From: an uncultured bacterium
Lineage (GTDB): Bacteria; Auribacterota; Tritonobacteria; UBA1439
Assembly (NCBI GenBank): GCA_964460305.1
Contig: CAYWRA010000002.1
Location: forward strand, 3,089-67,088
Direction: 5' to 3'
DNA length: 64,000 nt
In this document: piece by piece, positions 31,740 to 61,605 of the stretch
Layout: each line of letters begins with the position of its first letter
How positions within the stretch are numbered: position 1 is the stretch's first letter
The notes under the pieces: model-generated
The model's input: only the letters and a program-made list of their open reading frames with translations
Databases searched by the model: none
Told to the model about the DNA's origin: nothing
Program-made: the position numbers and the translations under genes

Positions 31740-31818
31740 CAAAATTCAAATGACAAAACACAATGAGGTTTTGTCATCTTGCCATTTGTAATTCATTTGT
31801 CATTTGGTATTTGTCATT
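31726..31818 (+). repeat. Repeat family B (AAATGAC/GTCATTT heptamer arms with a gacaaaacacaatgaggttttgtc core hairpin), copy B2
   Basis: Other copies lie at 41704-41790, 46918-46985 (-), 49330-49420 and 53600-53690. A degenerate copy lies at 26868-26975. Confidence 0.8.
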
Positions 31819-31842
31819 GGGGATATAGATCGGGACAACGTC

Positions 31843-32697
31843 ATGCAGGCGGAATATTCGGTCATAGGTTGGCCCCTGGGACATTCCCTGTCGCCCGCAA
31901 TCCACAACGCGTCGTTTGAAGTGCTCGCCCTCCCATGCCGCTTCACGGCGCGGGCGGTGTCCCCGGAACGCTTCGACCGGTTCATGAAATCAGTCCCTTC
32001 CTCGCCGCTCAAGGGACTCGCGGTAACGATCCCCTACAAAACCGAGGTCCTCAAGTATTGCACCGTGCGCGCGGCTGAGGTGGACACAATCGGCGCGGCA
32101 AACACTCTAACCGTTGTCGAGAGAGGCGCGTTGAAGGCCGATAACACGGATGCGGCCGCGGTGGGCCGAACATTGAGAGACGCCGGTATCTCTCCTAGTG
32201 GCAAGCGGGTTGTCGTACTCGGCGCCGGCGGGGCCGCGCGCGCGGCCTGCGCACAGATGCTCCTGGATGGGGCCGTCGCACTGACGATCGCCAATCGGAC
32301 CCTCTCCAGAGCGGAGAGTCTCGGGATAGGCCTGCGCAACGCCTTTCCATCGGCGGAGATAAACGCCATCCCCATCGAAGGCGAAGCGATCGCCCGCGCG
32401 CTGGAGGCATCCCGCATCCTCATCAATACCACGTCGGTTGGGATGTACCCCAACGTGGATGAGACACCCATCCCCGCCAAACTGCTCACGGACAAAATAG
32501 CGGTAATGGATGCCGTTTATAACCCCCTGGAAACGCTCTTGATAAGGCAGGCGAGGGAGAGGGGGGCCATAACGATCACGGGCATGGATATGCTCATCTA
32601 TCAGGCTGCCGAGCAGGAGCGGATCTGGCTGGGTGTGGAGGCGCCGCTGCCGGTGATGCGTGAAGCGCTCCTCAAGGCATTCGGGAGAGGTCTCTAA
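31843..32697 (+). CDS. aroE: Shikimate dehydrogenase
   Basis: The product has the AroE N-terminus YSVIGWPLGHSLSPAIHNASF and GAGGAARA in its Rossmann fold. Confidence 0.75.
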   Translation: MQAEYSVIGWPLGHSLSPAIHNASFEVLALPCRFTARAVSPERFDRFMKSVPSSPLKGLAVTIPYKTEVLKYCTVRAAEVDTIGAANTLTVVERGALKADNTDAAAVGRTLRDAGISPSGKRVVVLGAGGAARAACAQMLLDGAVALTIANRTLSRAESLGIGLRNAFPSAEINAIPIEGEAIARALEASRILINTTSVGMYPNVDETPIPAKLLTDKIAVMDAVYNPLETLLIRQARERGAITITGMDMLIYQAAEQERIWLGVEAPLPVMREALLKAFGRGL

Positions 32698-33784
32698 GAC
32701 GGCTGTCGCAGATGTCGGTCAGCGCCTGGGCTGTCCCCGCCTTCTTCCGGAACGACGGGTTCCACCTTCTTCGATACGCCCCGTAGAGTTTCTTCAGGAA
32801 CGTCTCGCTCAGCCCTTGCCACTGCTTCAATTTGGCCGCCTTGAACTCATCGAATGGCAGACGGTACTCATCCTCCGGCCAGCGTTCGCGCAGCGCATCC
32901 TCGAGGGTCCAGCCGTTCTCGGCCAGATGCCGGAGCTCCCTCCAGTAGGCCTCCAGTTTTCTCATGTAATCCTCGATGTCGAAGGCCCTCGTCCCGGCGT
33001 CGTAGATGACGCAGCGCTCCAGCGGATGGCAGATCGACTCGTATTGTGAGAGCTCGAACTCCGGCGTGAGGAGGGAGGGGTTCCTCATGAGATCGGTTCC
33101 CTGGAGCTTTATTCTAACCGCGGTCTTGGAATCGGCGAGGTGGAACTTGCCCTCGAGATACACCGCGCAGGTCCGCTCGTACTGGGGGAAGAGCCGGCGC
33201 AAGAGGGCATGGTATCCCCTGAGGAGTTTCTCCAGCTTGTGGCAGCCGACGGTAAAAAAGTATATCTGGCGGATCGGCGTCCCGCTGTTCTTGGCTAGAT
33301 TAACGATGATGTCCATGCCGTTGCTGATCGTGATACCCGTGGCGATGACGTCGGCGAAGAAAAGCGTGCCGTCATGGGGGAGGAGAATCTTGCGATATTG
33401 GTTGTCCTGGATGAACCATCGTCCGTACTTGTCTTTTTCCCGCTGGGAGGTGATGAAGGACGACGAGTGGGTGTTGAAGCCGTACGCCCGTGAAAGAGCG
33501 CGGCGCATGCCGAAGTTGAGGCTCCCCCTGAGGAAGTGGATGACCCCTATCGACCGGGGATCGAGCTTGCGGAGCGCAGACGCCAGAGGAAAATTAGTGA
33601 GGACCGAGACGATCGCGGATTCGAGGAGGTCGGTGTACCGGACGCCCACGACCTCCGGCCTGTTACAGACTTCGCGGCTCTCGGGTGTAGAGGCTACATA
33701 CCGCACCAGGCTGTCGCCATACTCACCCTTGAGCTCATAAATGACCGCCTTCGCATTCTTCTTTACAAGCTTGAGGTATTCCAC
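32672..33784 (-). CDS. Phosphoribosyltransferase (PRTase)-fold protein with ~140-aa C-terminal extension
   Basis: The product has the type I PRTase PRPP-binding motif TLFFADVIATGITI. An upstream UPRTase-like loop, VIHFLRGSLNFGMRRAL, is present. The start overlaps the stop of the upstream NTase-like gene. Confidence 0.45.
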   Translation of the reverse strand: MEYLKLVKKNAKAVIYELKGEYGDSLVRYVASTPESREVCNRPEVVGVRYTDLLESAIVSVLTNFPLASALRKLDPRSIGVIHFLRGSLNFGMRRALSRAYGFNTHSSSFITSQREKDKYGRWFIQDNQYRKILLPHDGTLFFADVIATGITISNGMDIIVNLAKNSGTPIRQIYFFTVGCHKLEKLLRGYHALLRRLFPQYERTCAVYLEGKFHLADSKTAVRIKLQGTDLMRNPSLLTPEFELSQYESICHPLERCVIYDAGTRAFDIEDYMRKLEAYWRELRHLAENGWTLEDALRERWPEDEYRLPFDEFKAAKLKQWQGLSETFLKKLYGAYRRRWNPSFRKKAGTAQALTDICDSRLRDLSRMP

Positions 33785-33787
33785 GCT

Positions 33788-34888
33788 TTATCCCTCGCCG
33801 CGGGCTATCTTCTCTATCTCTTGCGGCGCTGTCACGAGTAGCGCATCCCGCTCCTCGCGGTTCTTTACGACCCTGACCAGGCGGCTCACGATCCGCAGCG
33901 CGTCCCCCTTGAAATATTCACCGCGCTGCGCCCCATCGTAGATGATCAGGTCGATCGGCTGCTTCCGCCGCCGGCCGTCGATGGCGACCTGGTCGAGCTT
34001 GAATAGAGCGGGCAGGTATCCCGTGTGCCGGTCGTCGACCACCACACCGCCCGCCGAAACCGATTCCTTGACGACCTCCATGTGGAAATTTCTCAATGGG
34101 ATCTCATCAACGTCGGAATATTTGAAAAACGGACATACGACCGTCCCCAGGTGCTTGAATCGAAGAGGCCAGGTCTTCCCGAGTTCCACGCACTCGCGGT
34201 CCGGGCTTTCCTTCTTGAGCTGCCGGATGCGCTTGATGACCTCGAAATTCTGCTCCACGCTCCCGAAGAAAACGACGTCGACGTCCTCTTGGGGCTCTTC
34301 AAAATAGCCATAAGCGAGCGAGCCGTTGCAGCCGACCCGTTCCCTCGGCACGCCGAGGAGCTCATCGAGGGAGTCGACGACCTCCGCGAGGCGCGGCATG
34401 GATTCCATGAGGATTTTGAGAGATCGCTTGCCGTCAAAAAAACCCCGCATCTCGCTGAGGAGGAAATGATTGAAATGGTCCGCGTAGGGAGGGCAGGGGG
34501 GGCGCGTGGCAAGCTCCGGCAGCAACTCGACCTGGCGCCGCACCTGTTCCATGTAGGGGACGATCACCAGTTCTCCGTTTTCGTAACGCCTGTGGGTCCA
34601 ATTGAATTTCTTCCCGAAAATGATTATGTGGCCCTCGGGGTCGGGATATTTGATCAGGCAACCGAATAGCCCCCCCTCTGGATGGGCATACCCCTCGCTG
34701 TATACTACGCCCCCCCTCTTGTGCAGGAAATACATGGCGTCTGAAGGGCCGTCAGCAAGTTTTTCTATCGGAAGGAGATACTCCTGTATCGTCTTTTCAA
34801 AAAGATCGTCCATAACGCATTCTTCCATAAATTGCTCCACAACATGTTGTCCCCCATGGTCAAAAAGGATAGCATAGACCATCCCCAT
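33788..34888 (-). CDS. Pol-beta-superfamily nucleotidyltransferase-like protein (uncharacterised)
   Basis: The product has a GS-x10-DhD motif, GCNGSLAYGYFEEPQEDVDVVFFGS. It is the first gene of a two-gene minus-strand operon with the PRTase-fold gene. Confidence 0.35.
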   Translation of the reverse strand: MGMVYAILFDHGGQHVVEQFMEECVMDDLFEKTIQEYLLPIEKLADGPSDAMYFLHKRGGVVYSEGYAHPEGGLFGCLIKYPDPEGHIIIFGKKFNWTHRRYENGELVIVPYMEQVRRQVELLPELATRPPCPPYADHFNHFLLSEMRGFFDGKRSLKILMESMPRLAEVVDSLDELLGVPRERVGCNGSLAYGYFEEPQEDVDVVFFGSVEQNFEVIKRIRQLKKESPDRECVELGKTWPLRFKHLGTVVCPFFKYSDVDEIPLRNFHMEVVKESVSAGGVVVDDRHTGYLPALFKLDQVAIDGRRRKQPIDLIIYDGAQRGEYFKGDALRIVSRLVRVVKNREERDALLVTAPQEIEKIARGEG

Positions 34889-35112
34889 CCGGCAATATTC
34901 GAATGAGTCCCGAAAAGGCGGATAATGTAGGGGTTGCCCGCCTCAGGCGGGAATCCCGCCCCTCCAGGAATTACGCTCCTGATTTATATGCACCCAGTTG
35001 GTGAAGGTTTCAATCGCTTATCCACGATTTCGGGTAAGGACTGTGTATTCGAATGAGGACCGGAGTGAGGGGTTCATTCCAGGGACGGTGCGGAGCGCGC
35101 CACGGGTGGGCA

Positions 35113-36138
35113 TTACTCTTTGCGGATGTGGAAGTCGGCGTTGCCTATCTTTCGGCCACCCATGAAGTAAGCGGCGCAATACTTGCCGAGACCGCCCTTC
35201 GCAACGAGCGTGGCGATGTCCTCCTTGAAGGGGTGGATATCGTCGTCTTCCCCCCAGGTGTACCGCTCCTCGGAAACGCTTGCGCCCGTATCAGCCTTGT
35301 TTATCTTCATGAGGATCTCTTTCCCGGCGAATTCATTGCCGAGCTCGATGACGACGTAAAGCGAACCGTCCCTGGTGGTGTAGTTGGGACGGATGTCCAC
35401 CGCATGGTTAATGAACGCGCCGCATACAACGATGCTGCCCCGCGGCACCCTGACACGCTGCTCGTGCGGGATGAGGCCGAGGAGCAGTTTCCGTACGGCG
35501 CTGTCCGCCGCCCGGTCCAGGACCTCCGCCTCGCCCATGGCGGGGGGAGCGCCGTAGGATGAGGCGGTGCCGGTGCTCGAGTCGGACCAGATGACCTTCC
35601 CCGTGGAAACGTCGATAAGCCTTATGCCGGCCTCGACCACTGCGTCTACCTTGTACCAGTCAACGGGAACCTCGTCATAGTAGGCCTCATGCATCGATTC
35701 GTCAAAGTCGAATGGTTCTCCATAAAACCGCACCTCGTGATATCGGTCGCTTTTATAGTTCAGGACGGCGCCGGCGAGCAGCGCTTCCGCCCCCGATGAC
35801 CGGCCGAGTTCCATAGCGACGGCGGGTTTCATGCCATCATCAGGAGATAAATAACCCTTTTGGGCATCGACCTTGAGCGCCTTACCCGGAGCTATCTTAT
35901 AAGGGCCCCGCTGAAGGAGGAGGGCGGTGAGCTTATCCGAGACAACCTCCCCTGCGTCCGGAGAGGCCGATTTGTTCTCAAACGGCAATACGGCGATGGT
36001 ATGGATGTTTTGGTAATCGAACCGCGGTCTTACATTGACCCACACCCGCGGCCCGGCGCAGCCGATGGCCGCCGCCGCCATAAAAACGCCTGGAATGAAT
36101 CGTAATTTTGACATACGGCCTTTTGCCATTCTGTTCAT
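35113..36138 (-). CDS. Lipoprotein with CsgG/LpoB-like N-terminal segment
   Basis: A signal peptide plus lipobox-like AIGCAG is present. The N-terminus has IAVLPFENKSASPDAGEVVSDKLTALL. Confidence 0.4.
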   Translation of the reverse strand: MNRMAKGRMSKLRFIPGVFMAAAAIGCAGPRVWVNVRPRFDYQNIHTIAVLPFENKSASPDAGEVVSDKLTALLLQRGPYKIAPGKALKVDAQKGYLSPDDGMKPAVAMELGRSSGAEALLAGAVLNYKSDRYHEVRFYGEPFDFDESMHEAYYDEVPVDWYKVDAVVEAGIRLIDVSTGKVIWSDSSTGTASSYGAPPAMGEAEVLDRAADSAVRKLLLGLIPHEQRVRVPRGSIVVCGAFINHAVDIRPNYTTRDGSLYVVIELGNEFAGKEILMKINKADTGASVSEERYTWGEDDDIHPFKEDIATLVAKGGLGKYCAAYFMGGRKIGNADFHIRKE

Positions 36139-36496
36139 GGCGAGAATTATACACCGGCGGCGGAACTATTCCACCACTTTATCGGCCGAGTGGAAGGGGA
36201 ATGAACAGCCGCGAATTCTCACCGCGGAGATGACGTACCGTATCAAAGAGCACTTGCACCTGATTGCTCTGATTTTCTATGGTGGTGGAGGAATCAGGAT
36301 AATCAGGCGCTCAACTGGTTAAACTTTTTCGCCGCGATCTCGGGGATTGCGGGTGTTCATGCCCTTGTGATAGAGTATCGATGAAGCAGGACAAGGGGGT
36401 GACATGGTCTATTCACCACACCTTCCAGAAAATAGCAGCGGCGATCGTGATGCCGCCGGCTCCCGTGGGGAAGCGGCCCCGACATCGACTGGCGAG

Positions 36497-36862
36497 ATGC
36501 AGCTCGCCTCAGCCCCTGAGAAGAAAAGCGGCTGCGTCATCTACATCAACGGCGGCGCCATCGGCGACGGCAACCATCCCCAGGGGCGCAGCCTCATACA
36601 GAGCTTCCTCTATACCCTCACCGAAATAGCACCCCAGCCCAAGGCTATCGTTCTAGTCGGTTCGGCGGTAAGGCTGGCGTGCGCTGGCTCCGCCGCCCTG
36701 GAGAGCTTGTCGCTCATGCAAGAGCAGGACGTCCAGATTCTTATTGCGGAGAAATCCCTTGAGGAGATCGGAGGCGAGGTGAAGGCCGCGGTGGGGAACC
36801 CGGCGACGATGCACACGATCCTCAACACCCTTCTCCAGGCAGAGAAAGTAATAACCCTCTGA
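36497..36862 (+). CDS. DsrE/DsrF/TusD-like sulfur-relay family small protein
   Basis: The product has CVIYINGGAIGDG...KAIVLVGSAVRLACAGS...EKVITL. The start site is uncertain. Confidence 0.35.
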   Translation: MQLASAPEKKSGCVIYINGGAIGDGNHPQGRSLIQSFLYTLTEIAPQPKAIVLVGSAVRLACAGSAALESLSLMQEQDVQILIAEKSLEEIGGEVKAAVGNPATMHTILNTLLQAEKVITL

Positions 36863-36876
36863 GCAGACGCAGTAGG

Positions 36877-36965
36877 AAAATCCCAAATCCCAAACTCCAA
36901 AACCCAAAGAATCTGGCGCCCTATACGCATCGTTATTGGGTTTTGGAGTTTGGGATTTGGGATTT
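36877..36965. repeat. Family C long perfect hairpin (28-bp stems of AAATCCC-type heptamers)
   Basis: aaaatcccaaatcccaaactccaaaacccaa-N29-ttgggttttggagtttgggatttgggattt. It lies between convergent genes. Confidence 0.85.
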
Positions 36966-36991
36966 ATGCTGCGGTTGATGCATAAATCAGG

Positions 36992-37318
36992 CTAGAGGGA
37001 CAGCCAGTTGAACCAGCCTAGATCGAAGAGCTCGCTATAGGTCGCCAGGCCGAGGAGCGCCACGTACATTAGGATGCCCGCGAGGGAGAGCGCAGCTCCA
37101 TGCGTCCGGCAAAATCCGAGAATCGATTTCTCTTTCAGGAAGCAGAGGGTGATCAGCGCAAAACCGATGGCGCCGCCGAGAAGCACGCTCCCTCCCCCGG
37201 GGGGAATGACGGTCGCCACCCATGCTCCGGCCAGTGTGAACAGCGCCACCAGCAGGAGGCGAAGGGCGACGCCTAGCATTGTGTCGATGGGGCCGCGAGG
37301 CAATGGTGCGGTATTCAT
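36992..37318 (-). CDS. Small hypothetical membrane protein
   Basis: Three predicted TM helices. No motif was recognised. Confidence 0.3.
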   Translation of the reverse strand: MNTAPLPRGPIDTMLGVALRLLLVALFTLAGAWVATVIPPGGGSVLLGGAIGFALITLCFLKEKSILGFCRTHGAALSLAGILMYVALLGLATYSELFDLGWFNWLSL

Positions 37319-37329
37319 TCAGCTCACGC

Positions 37330-37545
37330 CTAGGCAGGCGCGGGGGCTTCCGCCTTCTTCTTTTCTTCTTCCTGCTTTTTTGTGAACTCTTTCCAGCAGC
37401 GCCTGGTGCAGTAATAACCGCCGTCCCGATAGTACCATTTGACGCGGCTCAACGCCTTGCTGCAATGTTCGCACTTATCGGGTTTTTCCTTTTTCGGGGG
37501 AGGGGCGTTCTTCTGTGCCCCCTCTTTTTTCACTTCATCAGTCAT
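37330..37545 (-). CDS. Small Lys-rich zinc-ribbon-like protein
   Basis: The product has CEHC...C...C in a 71-aa basic protein. Confidence 0.35.
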   Translation of the reverse strand: MTDEVKKEGAQKNAPPPKKEKPDKCEHCSKALSRVKWYYRDGGYYCTRRCWKEFTKKQEEEKKKAEAPAPA

Positions 37546-60245: not shown

Positions 60246-60363
60246 GACATAAAAGTTGTAAAGTAAACATCATCTACTGGGGCGAAAAGGCAAGGTTAAC
60301 TAAGTGGCCTCGCTGCCATTGTATTTGCAACTAACCACAACATCTATTGATGGAGGTTAAATC

Positions 60364-60945
60364 GTGAAAAAAAAAGAATGGATAAAACTAGAAAATAGAA
60401 AAGAAGTGGTTGACAAAGTTGCAGAAATGGTCAAAACCGCACAAAGTGAAGTATACATCATTGGCCATAGTGCAAGATGGTTGAAGGAAAAATCATTTCA
60501 GGAAGCTATGGAGAGTGCTCGGAATGTGGCTGATGCAAAATTTTTGATTACATGTCCCGAAGATATTACAGATGCTATCTTAATCTCTTTAAAAGAGTTA
60601 AAGCAAAAAGGCATTGTCGACAAAATATTAAAAAGATCTTATGGGCGTATGAGAATTTGTCTGGTCGACGGGCGCAAAATTTTATTAGCACACACCTTAG
60701 ATTATAAAGATAAGAAAGGCAACACTTCTTTTGGTTTATATTTTGAAGATGATAATTTTGGACATTGGTTGTCAACAAGATTCACCGAGCTAGCTCAGGA
60801 TGCATATGATATAGACGACAGCAAATTTATTATTATGATAAAAAGCATTTACTATTCCATTAGGGCTCATTGGCTCGAATGGATAATCATTGCGGCAATA
60901 GGTGCAGCATTATCAAGTGGTTTCTCCAGCTTATTCAAATTATGA
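60364..60945 (+). CDS. Low-GC island gene 1: uncharacterised protein with C-terminal TM anchor
   Basis: The ORF has a GTG start with a GGAGG ribosome-binding site. Its AT-rich codon usage contrasts with the rest of the window. The C-terminus is HWLEWIIIAAIGAALSSGFSSLF. It shares the pattern ...hIIxxSxxhL...GxxxhxLxxGRxxhL with island gene 2. Confidence 0.45.
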   Translation: MKKKEWIKLENRKEVVDKVAEMVKTAQSEVYIIGHSARWLKEKSFQEAMESARNVADAKFLITCPEDITDAILISLKELKQKGIVDKILKRSYGRMRICLVDGRKILLAHTLDYKDKKGNTSFGLYFEDDNFGHWLSTRFTELAQDAYDIDDSKFIIMIKSIYYSIRAHWLEWIIIAAIGAALSSGFSSLFKL

Positions 60946-60990
60946 AAAGTGAATAGATTATATCCAATGTGATAACCAGACGGTATTATC

Positions 60991-61554
60991 ATGAACTTAA
61001 AAATCATTAATAAAAAAAATACTATCTACTTGGATGCAATTGAAATCATAAAGAACAGCGAGAATAAACTTTTTATAATCGAAAGGAGTTCAAGCCTATT
61101 ATTAGGGGCGAGGAAAAATCCAATTGAAAAAAGCTATTTAACCTCACTAAGCAAATACATTCATGAATTACAAAATGGCTCCGGGAAGATGTTATTCTAC
61201 CTTTACAATTGCGTAGAAACGAAAGGCGAAATGTTCAAAAGAAACATTTCTTTTAACAAAGTCACTGATAATTTTTACAATCTTCAAAAAATACAGGAAA
61301 AGTGCGATGGAAGTTTCATAATAAAATCATTCAAAGAACCGGGTAATCCCTTGGTGATAGGAGACCGTGAGTTCAGCCTATGGTTATCCAATCCACTCGG
61401 CAATATTCTATGCATTAATATCGAAAATAAAAAATACACGGATGGTATTTTCGAATCATACAAACATTACGCGTTACATTTACCCACCAAGTCAATAGAA
61501 GCATTAACCTGTGAACTTAAACCTAAAGAAGCACATACGCATTTCTTTGATTAA
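60991..61554 (+). CDS. Low-GC island gene 2: uncharacterised soluble protein, distant paralogue of gene 1
   Basis: The ORF is AT-rich. The segments LFIIERSSSLLLG and PLVIGDREFSLWLSNP parallel gene 1. Confidence 0.45.
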   Translation: MNLKIINKKNTIYLDAIEIIKNSENKLFIIERSSSLLLGARKNPIEKSYLTSLSKYIHELQNGSGKMLFYLYNCVETKGEMFKRNISFNKVTDNFYNLQKIQEKCDGSFIIKSFKEPGNPLVIGDREFSLWLSNPLGNILCINIENKKYTDGIFESYKHYALHLPTKSIEALTCELKPKEAHTHFFD

Positions 61555-61605
61555 CTAAGAGCCATCCCTAAATGACGATAGTCCGCCTAAAAATAATCAA
61601 GGTAC

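Follow-up and report, generated by a model that had tools for sequence, protein, structure and literature searches.

A chromosomal two-gene unit of an Auribacterota-like genome: a putative nucleobase-salvage phosphoribosyltransferase of an uncurated family and its predicted nucleotidyltransferase neighbour

Genes A and B, the subject of this work, are neighbours on the minus strand of a 64,000-nucleotide stretch of DNA from an uncultured bacterium (contig CAYWRA010000002.1, positions 3,089 to 67,088; hereafter the window, by which we mean the whole stretch that was analysed). The best-described proteins with which the product of B can be compared are the type I phosphoribosyltransferases (PRTases), that is HGPRT, APRT and PyrR/UPRTase (PF00156, PF14681). 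B shares their core fold; in B as in them, an arginine-containing loop follows the first strand and a hairpin occupies the position of the flexible loop, and its loop [DE]V[VI]ATGxT contains the same 'ATG' as those of APRT and UPRTase. The operon logic is also familiar: the combination of a PRTase gene with a base permease gene, as in upp-uraA of E. coli or pyrR-pyrP of B. subtilis, recurs among the Clostridia relatives of B, and that of a PRTase with a nucleoside phosphorylase is likewise seen at B loci. Unlike the type I enzymes, however, B is about twice as long and has a beta unit at the N-terminus, a helical domain at the C-terminus and an insertion. It has only low sequence identity to them, fails all of the curated models, carries a single acidic residue in its phosphoribosyl pyrophosphate (PRPP) loop and has invariant residues (E211, D231, E256, C258 and D262) without obvious counterpart in these enzymes.

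For A, the comparison is with the minimal Pol-beta nucleotidyltransferases (NTases) of PF01909 (MNT, ANT/AadA and the head of the CCA-adding enzymes), with which it shares hG-GS-x(9-13)-DxD on a helix-strand-helix-strand unit. Unlike them, A has this unit flanked by a unique N-terminal domain and an OB fold and scores below the Pfam cutoff; moreover, some members of the A superfamily lack the third carboxylate. Two further systems have to be kept in mind. In the CBASS type of CD-NTase plus effector, as in A-B, a two-gene operon joins an NTase-like gene to a following gene for an enzyme of nucleotide metabolism, but A has no similarity to the PADLOC CD-NTase or SMODS models, no SAVED, CARF or TIR sensor domain accompanies it, and the pair is neither mobile nor located in a defence island. 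Several relatives of B have PRTase-CE (PF24390) as their top Pfam profile, all of them scoring below its gathering threshold; unlike the effector setting of that family, the context of B is one of housekeeping genes, without sensor or NTPase partners.

We favour, with moderate confidence, the interpretation that A and B form a chromosomal two-gene unit in which B is a nucleobase-salvage PRTase and A an accessory peculiar to one clade. For B this is based on its fold, its ribose-5-phosphate loop, its coupling to phosphorylase genes, the permease operon, the pyrimidine and nucleotide genes among its neighbours and its presence in reduced, salvage-dependent genomes. B would join a free nucleobase, probably a pyrimidine, to PRPP, yielding the nucleoside 5'-monophosphate and pyrophosphate (PPi). 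This salvage step would elsewhere be coupled either to import of the base by a CodB-type permease or to its release from nucleosides by a uridine-phosphorylase-like enzyme. A would transfer a nucleotidyl group from an NTP to an acceptor bound by its OB fold, either a nucleotide-like compound or the end of a single-stranded nucleic acid, with the 3' end of the latter as the most likely acceptor, and in acting there it would use or modify the pool fed by B. The two proteins may be coupled, whether physically or metabolically.

The PRTase fold of B

The AlphaFold2 (AF2) model of B, which was made from 40 homologues, has a predicted local distance difference test score (pLDDT) of 93 and a predicted TM-score of 0.91. 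In a Foldseek search, its core matched type I PRTases with a probability of 0.98-1.00 (4trb, 1r3u, 2jbh and 4p86), those with names being the APRT of S. solfataricus, HGPRTs, PyrR and PRTFDC1. These alignments span 133-190 residues at 13-19% identity (E ~1e-3), and the target-normalised TM-scores are 0.33-0.50 for the four chains cited and at most 0.52 for other PyrR chains. B has the five-stranded parallel-sheet core of the type I enzymes, superimposable on that of solved PRTases, and the PRTase-fold call of a preliminary description of this DNA is well supported by the Foldseek probability of ~1.0 to HGPRT, PyrR and APRT. The same description had given B a C-terminal extension of 140 aa; an extension does exist, and it is helical, but its length is ~108 aa and it is complemented by a three-stranded beta unit of ~45 aa at the N-terminus. 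In the Peregrinibacteria members of the family, with ~330 aa, the C-terminal domain is reduced or missing.

Three segments of the core occupy the positions of PRTase loops. The FLRGSLNF region is a putative PPi loop, in which R86, L89 and N90 are invariant (alignments A1 and A5); hhalign places it, weakly, opposite the 'ILRAGL' of UPRTase (E 0.042, with a probability of 1.2% for the comparison of B with E. coli Upp, the query sequence of the latter being approximate). The beta-hairpin of residues 107-132 is, by its position, the putative flexible loop, and its residues S113, R115, Y130 and K132 are invariant even when the Clostridia branch of the family (see below) is included. Finally, the PRPP loop announced by the preliminary description, TLFFADVIATGITI, is indeed present, although it has one acidic residue instead of the canonical two. 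A148, T149, G150 and T152 do not vary in the alignment of 40 sequences; with the Clostridia branch added, this remains true of A148, G150 and T152, while position 149 is either T or S, so that the pattern of the whole family is [DE]V[VI]A[TS]GxT. Set against the canonical pattern (four hydrophobic, two acidic and two hydrophobic residues, then [ST]-G-x-T), LFFADVIATGIT has the hydrophobic run and ATGxT, both invariant, but a single acidic residue (A-D, G-D or G-E). The matches to the PyrR, Pribosyltran and PRTase-CE profiles all centre on this loop. Overall, the family has a mean column identity of 50%, with ~40 positions invariant across phyla.

B belongs to none of the families in Pfam, NCBIfam or PADLOC at E values up to 1, and searches of the PDB sequences, with B itself and with the family profile, gave no significant match. 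The view of the preliminary description that neither protein falls into a named family therefore stands, since neither A nor B has a curated Pfam, NCBIfam or PADLOC assignment. Some of the relatives of B come closer to known profiles. They reach E values of 1.7e-5 to 6e-4 with PF24390 (PRTase-CE), the best being P0115 with 25.3 bits against a cutoff of 27, and the match spans the PRPP-loop region (profile positions ~85-182 of 253). With PF00156 (Pribosyltran) they score 11.6-13.9 bits, below the cutoff of 26.3, and with the UPRTase model PF14681 11-15 bits (E 0.014-0.29), below the cutoff of 27. No UPRTase is found among the top 50 Foldseek matches of B.

Distribution and gene context of the B family

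A scan for B in one genome per GTDB species yielded 198 loci, of which 80 were retained for the analysis of gene context. The bacteria among these belong to the Auribacterota, other members of the PVC group, Myxococcota, 'Deltaproteobacteria', Bradymonadales, Peregrinibacteria, Gracilibacteria, Fraserbacteria, Acetothermia, Chloroflexota and Planctomycetota. Some loci are in bins labelled archaeal, and B is present in reduced genomes of the candidate phyla radiation (CPR) and in others labelled DPANN. The family thus spans about ten phyla, and all of the carriers of window-type B are uncultured organisms. Neighbouring open reading frames (ORFs) were clustered across 81 loci and the clusters then identified. 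The commonest partner of B, in 25 of the 81 loci, is a PNP_UDP_1 gene of ~280 aa that lies directly downstream on the same strand, frequently overlaps B by 4 nt and has uridine phosphorylase as its best match (1e-39). A dCTP deaminase gene is near B in 14 loci; these deaminases have the size of housekeeping enzymes and score above the cutoff of the dCTP_deam equivalog model. In a second group of Auribacterota and PVC loci the gene order is PMT_2, RNase R, dCTP deaminase, B, a Zn-ribbon protein and a transglutaminase-like protein, with DeoC nearby, and in the Peregrinibacteria a gene of the GuaB1 type is just upstream of B.

Three or four unrelated lineages have B within a dcd-allH-fdrA-B-allG cluster. 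At L060:1557-7143, as in L067, L080 and L022, it is inserted between an allF-like fdrA and allG, with AllH encoded upstream; an operon of this type combines the genes of an oxamate-carbamoyltransferase-type complex with a PRTase-fold gene.

More generally, a Pfam census of the 149 cluster representatives located no more than two genes from B turned up housekeeping families (among them CTP synthase, dihydroorotate dehydrogenase (DHODH), IMP dehydrogenase, LOG, enolase, AdoHcyase and aro genes) and no recurrent defence family; the PADLOC matches among these representatives were singletons to generic domains. Nor is B found in 72,556 plasmids or in IMG/VR, and 50,697 phage records contain a single, distant match on an unverified scaffold; in none of these three collections is there any A. 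An Rfam scan of nine B loci revealed no riboswitch, and neither in the window nor at the 80 genome loci is a CodB-like permease or a canonical Upp encoded near B. Apparent fusions of B with other domains, suggested by long ORFs in GC-rich loci, turned out to be start-codon artefacts.

The single match in the phage collection, a protein with 26% identity on an 8.5-kb gut scaffold, opened the way to a second branch of the family. Used as a query, it retrieved 1,517 clusters at 90% identity, some of them with thousands of sequences, from gut Clostridia such as Fusicatenibacter. These proteins are only 22-24% identical to window-type B, yet R86, L89, N90, S113, R115, Y130, K132, A148, G150 and T152 are kept across both branches, as are E211, D231, E256, C258, Y261, D262, G264, R266 and W281. 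On the strength of these shared residues we consider the window family and the Clostridia branch as one superfamily with one architecture. The Clostridia B-like gene is followed, 22-90 nt downstream and in three different flanking contexts, by an NCS1 permease gene whose product matches the cytosine permease CodB of Proteus (7qoa) over its full length with an E value of 1e-99. This adjacency is present in 72 of the 75 gut metagenome loci with room downstream, which is not an independent count since the loci share 88-100% identity. No cytosine deaminase gene stands beside the Clostridia B-like gene.

The leader of this Clostridia operon (L097:7822-7990; L092:7051-7215) has a sigma-70 promoter matching the consensus at 12/12 positions and, ~100 nt further on and directly before the ribosome-binding site (RBS), an intrinsic terminator of 13-14 bp. 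The sequence of the terminator stem differs between the two loci while its pairing is maintained, and an Rfam scan of three Clostridia loci gave no match to the leader, finding only an unrelated T-box. It looks like an attenuator or a novel riboswitch. The T-box in question (129 bits; L097:15783-16016) precedes a leuA-like gene and has nothing to do with the B-like operon. As for the scaffold itself, L092 is GenBank record MT837820.1, labelled 'UNVERIFIED: Bacteriophage sp.'; it encodes a serine recombinase, a DUF1016-like nuclease, a CPBP protease and a MoxR-vWA pair, has the B-like gene at its end and looks like a fragment of a bacterial chromosome or integrative element rather than a phage. 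Among the gut contigs L100-L143, many independent assemblies end ~270-310 nt upstream of the B-like gene, which suggests that the sequence there is strain-variable or repeated.

Taken together, the uridine-phosphorylase-like enzyme, dCTP deaminase, CodB-type permease, CTP synthase and DHODH make a pyrimidine the most likely base for B. Of the roles that the preliminary description had listed, it is the second, nucleotide salvage, that agrees with this gene context.

Gene A and its pairing with B

Two same-strand ORFs were reported in the preliminary description, and this part of it is confirmed: 33788..34888, with 366 aa if read from the first ATG, and 32672..33784, with 370 aa and a GTG start. 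Given that both have deep homologue families (33 close matches for A and more than 182 for B), they are real genes and not chance ORFs. The full 366 aa of A are, on the other hand, probably not translated. Its homologues start at M21 or M26 of the long ORF, residues 1-21 have a pLDDT below 50 in the model, and a GGAG sequence is found 6 nt upstream of the ATG at 34828; the start is thus probably at that ATG, giving 346 aa, with 34813 (341 aa) as the alternative.

The AF2 model of A (pLDDT 91) has three parts (Table 1), with an OB fold at the C-terminus and a beta-rich domain at the N-terminus on either side of the NTase motif. The N-terminal domain, for which no fold match was obtained, has the conserved motif D..YF...G...EGYxHP.G (columns in alignments A2 and A4). 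The C-terminal domain is a five-stranded closed beta-barrel like that of solved OB folds. Between them is the core with the motif G186..G189-S190-x11-D202-V-D204, which agrees with the Pol-beta signature hG[GS]-x(9-13)-[DE]h[DE]h; the GS...DVD previously noticed is present, with a spacer of eleven residues rather than ten. The G, the S and both D residues are invariant in 31 relatives (A2), and the G and the two D residues remain so across 40 distant members of the superfamily (A4). In the model the order of the core is helix-helix-strand-helix-strand-helix-strand, with GS before a helix and DxD on a strand. At E235, the candidate for the third carboxylate, A2 shows no variation, and some distant members, such as P0198, P0203 and P0215, have another residue there (A4).

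A itself scores 13.3 bits with PF01909, below the gathering threshold of 21 bits, and its relatives score 13.7-18.6 bits (E 0.0026-0.084), also below the cutoff; six family members have such matches, with E values of 0.0026-0.11. In an hhalign comparison with AadA (E 0.014; the AadA sequence used was approximate) the motifs are in register. The invariant motif, the order of secondary structures, the sub-cutoff PF01909 matches and the register with AadA together lead us to regard A as most likely a Pol-beta-type NTase, predicted to be active, with an OB fold as its substrate-binding domain. The earlier NTase call thus has the Pol-beta signature in its favour, the PF01909 score being below cutoff. 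An exhaustive profile search put the superfamily of A at 215 clusters at 50% identity, with proteins of ~310-375 aa, one of which is fused to an S-adenosylmethionine (SAM) methyltransferase. No Pfam model covers this superfamily, and A gave no match above threshold in Pfam, NCBIfam, PADLOC or the PDB sequences.

The junction between the two genes reads GGA TAA AGC GTG, with A and B 3 nt apart in one frame and not, as first described, overlapping by 4 nt. A GAGG RBS for B lies within the 3' end of A, 8 nt before the GTG, and the homologues of B begin with MEYL.. at this same GTG. The window, L001, L003, L004 and L005 all have A directly upstream of B, with a spacing of 3-18 nt (L002 is cut by the end of its contig). 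In these loci B is at least 68% identical to that of the window and A down to 57%, and the spacing persists although the genes on the flanks are not the same. No relative of A was detected, profile search included, in the remaining 75 of the 80 B loci. Co-conservation of the two genes, which the preliminary description had put forward as a check, consequently holds for the window, L001 and L003-L005 and fails in those 75 loci: A-B is a conserved operon unit within one clade and not a universal two-component system. In that clade the two genes are very probably co-transcribed. A fusion of A with B, or read-through of the stop codon of A, was considered and rejected, the spacing in the relatives being 5-18 nt and no fused homologue having been seen.

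The same genomes contain a second locus with three tandem paralogues of A, which are 39-49% identical to one another. Their neighbours are a coiled-coil protein and a bona fide methylthioadenosine (MTA) phosphorylase and, variably, family 2 glycosyltransferase (GT2), radical SAM and methyltransferase genes. In one instance, L081:1-2915 corresponds to window positions 35122-37534 (a gene resembling EF-Tu domain 2, small ORFs and the CsgG-like lipoprotein gene, with ~80% amino-acid identity); after this lipoprotein block, at L081:3074-9172, come the coiled-coil protein, the MTA phosphorylase and the three A paralogues, with no A-B. The breakpoint of synteny is therefore exactly at A. Although it might be tempting to see a functional triangle of A, B and phosphorylase here, we have rejected it: the MTA phosphorylase is of another subfamily than the partner of B, and a gene on the opposite strand separates it from the A genes. 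Nor is the coiled-coil gene upstream of the MTA phosphorylase a homologue of B. Elsewhere (L088:1165-3890; L084:1121-2747), a GT2 gene precedes a radical SAM gene whose end is overlapped by a distant A-like gene. A shared link of A-like genes to GT2 and radical SAM genes was not retained, as the GT2 and radical SAM proteins of L084 and L088 are barely or not at all similar to their counterparts.

Table 1. Position of the features of the A-B locus in the window.
Feature	Coordinates	Strand	Basis or remark
Gene A, NTase-OB protein	33788..34828	-	open frame reaches ATG at 34888
A, N-terminal beta-rich domain, ~residues 36-135 (ORF numbering)	34484..34783	-	AF2 secondary structure, conserved columns
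A, minimal Pol-beta-type NTase core, ~residues 140-260	34109..34471	-	motif at 34277-34333
A, C-terminal OB-fold domain, ~residues 266-360	33809..34093	-	
Gene B, PRTase-fold protein, 370 aa	32672..33784	-	homologues, AF2 model, Foldseek
B, FLRGSLNF motif, residues 84-91	33512..33535	-	PPi-loop position after first core strand
B, beta-hairpin 107-132 (SSFITSQR...GRW...QYRK)	33389..33466	-	strands 107-117 and 123-132 in model
B, PRPP / ribose-5-phosphate loop TLFFADVIATGITI, residues 140-153	33326..33367	-	
B, C-terminal all-helical domain, ~residues 263-370, YW and ERWP motifs	32675..32998	-	helices 263-367 in model
A-B junction	33782..33796	-	GAGG RBS, TAA (A stop), AGC spacer, GTG (B start), same frame
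Intergenic region, CsgG/LpoB-like lipoprotein gene to A	34829..35112	-	presumed promoter location
Convergent 3' overlap of B and aroE	32672..32697	.	26 nt; aroE 31804-32697, plus strand

Judging from its sequence, the host would be an Auribacterota-like organism, the closest relatives being metagenome-assembled genomes labelled Candidatus Auribacterota or Aureabacteria. A is preceded by the CsgG/LpoB-like lipoprotein gene (35113..36138) and, farther out, by genes for a DinG-type helicase and a TPR/PMT_2 protein. The gap to the lipoprotein gene is 284-299 bp from the later starts of A and 224 bp only if the first ATG is used; it contains neither a sigma-70 consensus promoter nor an Rfam element, although the promoter presumably lies here, and the gap of 225 bp in the preliminary description is thus not confirmed for the later starts. 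Past the end of B are aroE, aroC, aroA and a Ddl-like ligase gene. This block, B included, is syntenic in L001 and in part in L002 to L005, and the overlap of 26 nt between B and aroE is kept in L001, L002 and L005. The GC content around the pair shows no anomaly. At some distance, the window has an island of low GC (60300-61600; 0.38 against 0.55-0.60 in the remainder) with two AT-rich ORFs (60364-60945 and 60991-61554) and, after them, another two, all four of unknown function; the island may be foreign DNA. There are no tRNA genes in the entire window.

Alternative explanations and significance

Several observations weigh against the salvage interpretation. Canonical PRPP loops have two acidic residues where B has one, the B of the window has no match at E values up to 1 to any of the Pfam PRTase models, and the nearest Pfam model for its relatives is PF24390, in which 'CE' stands for conflict effector. 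The uridine-phosphorylase-like partner scores 136 bits, far under the equivalog cutoff of 280. On the side of A, the fold searches produced matches to the OB domain alone, and its NTase fold is a prediction. Furthermore, distant A-like genes have unrelated neighbours, never a PRTase; the link between A and B may therefore be recent and functionally loose.

This last point brings up mere adjacency, according to which B is a salvage enzyme and A a 3'-end nucleotidyltransferase of RNA or single-stranded DNA that happened to land upstream of it in one clade. That A adjoins B in the closest clade alone, that the same genomes hold three more tandem paralogues of A elsewhere and that synteny breaks precisely at A are all in keeping with such an accident, as are the unrelated neighbours of the distant A-like genes. 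We nevertheless find it doubtful: the spacer is of 3-18 nt, with the RBS of B inside the 3' end of A, and the contact between the genes has been kept while A diverged to 57% identity and both flanks changed. Another possibility is that B is mainly a regulator like PyrR, sensing a nucleotide or PRPP and controlling its operon via an RNA leader, with PRTase activity as a secondary matter. PyrR is indeed among its best structural matches, and in the Clostridia the B-like gene comes first and the base permease next, behind a leader with a 12/12 sigma-70 promoter and a strong terminator before the RBS, the pairing of whose stem is kept; pyrR-pyrP of B. subtilis has just this order of regulator gene and permease gene. 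B, however, is twice the size of PyrR and its catalytic-type loops are invariant, the Myxococcota B is translationally coupled to a phosphorylase in what is a typical enzyme-pair arrangement, and the window has no leader terminator or Rfam element upstream of A-B. A mainly regulatory role is accordingly unlikely in our view.

One could also imagine a biosynthetic pathway in which B ribosylates an unusual heterocycle with PRPP and A nucleotidylates the product to give a modified nucleotide, a cofactor or a nucleoside-type metabolite; PRTase action followed by nucleotidyl transfer is the logic of the NAD and cobamide lower-ligand pathways. Both B and its phosphorylase partner are outside the curated specificity families, A-like genes adjoin glycosyltransferase, radical SAM and epimerase genes (with one SAM methyltransferase fusion), and B occurs within the allH-fdrA-B-allG cluster of three or four lineages. 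In most lineages, though, neither A nor another transferase accompanies B, the surroundings of A-B show no further conserved pathway genes, and the combination of a Pol-beta NTase with an OB fold would point to nucleic-acid acceptors more than to small molecules, all of which makes this pathway distinctly unlikely. The defence or signalling module proposed by the preliminary description, in which A makes a nucleotide signal or senses infection while B depletes or modifies nucleotides, we regard as very unlikely. NTase-plus-effector logic is frequent in defence systems, and enzymes of the PNP and dCTP-deaminase types are known also as defence effectors. In addition, PRTase-CE, just under its cutoff, is the nearest Pfam profile of the B relatives, and the distant relative on the unverified 'phage' scaffold is close to a MoxR-vWA pair and a serine recombinase. 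However, PADLOC-DB v2 has not one family matching A or B at E values up to 1, the 149 neighbour representatives include no recurrent defence family, and the neighbours of the pair in the window are, like the genes in stable synteny with B elsewhere, housekeeping ones. Equally unexpected for a defence module are the very high conservation of B (~40 invariant residues across phyla), the lack of A and B in plasmids and IMG/VR with but one scaffold in the phage collection, the dCTP deaminases that pass their equivalog model at housekeeping size, and the coupling of the Clostridia B to a CodB-type permease.

If salvage by B is accepted, a more specific and frankly tentative proposal can be made, namely that the B superfamily is the missing cytosine PRTase, which would convert cytosine and PRPP directly to CMP. 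Reviews state that such an activity is missing throughout the tree of life (PMC10221552, PMC8842674); it has been reported in Giardia extracts alone (PMC2187579). With a CodB-type permease as its partner, the B superfamily is a concrete candidate for it. Circumstantial indications are the Clostridia CodB-type operon without an adjoining cytosine deaminase, the dCTP deaminase and CTP synthase neighbours, the atypical nature of the uridine-phosphorylase-like neighbour and the distinctness of B from the curated uracil, orotate and purine PRTases. We consider this outcome improbable. If the base is cytosine, the A of the window clade could draw on cytidine nucleotides, as an enzyme adding C to RNA 3' ends would do.

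Both proteins, then, have known folds and belong to families beyond all of the curated resources. Their combination of an NTase-OB protein with a PRTase is not described in the literature that we searched, which also contains no description of PRTase-CE or of a PRTase, NTase, OB-fold and nucleoside phosphorylase in combination. The pairing of an NTase with a PRTase is, on its own, no signature of defence. B is the entry point to a widespread PRTase-fold family outside the curated libraries (198 loci plus 1,517 clusters), and A defines a second uncurated family, of NTase plus OB fold. The partner genes of B, for base permeases, nucleoside phosphorylases and dCTP deaminase, make its function testable by simple assays. 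Should cytosine prove to be the base, a long-noted gap in pyrimidine metabolism would be filled, and the fluxes of 5-fluorocytosine and cytosine in gut bacteria would have to be read differently. Should it be uracil or some other base, B would still represent a new family of salvage enzymes of uncultured phyla, including reduced lineages of the CPR and DPANN type.

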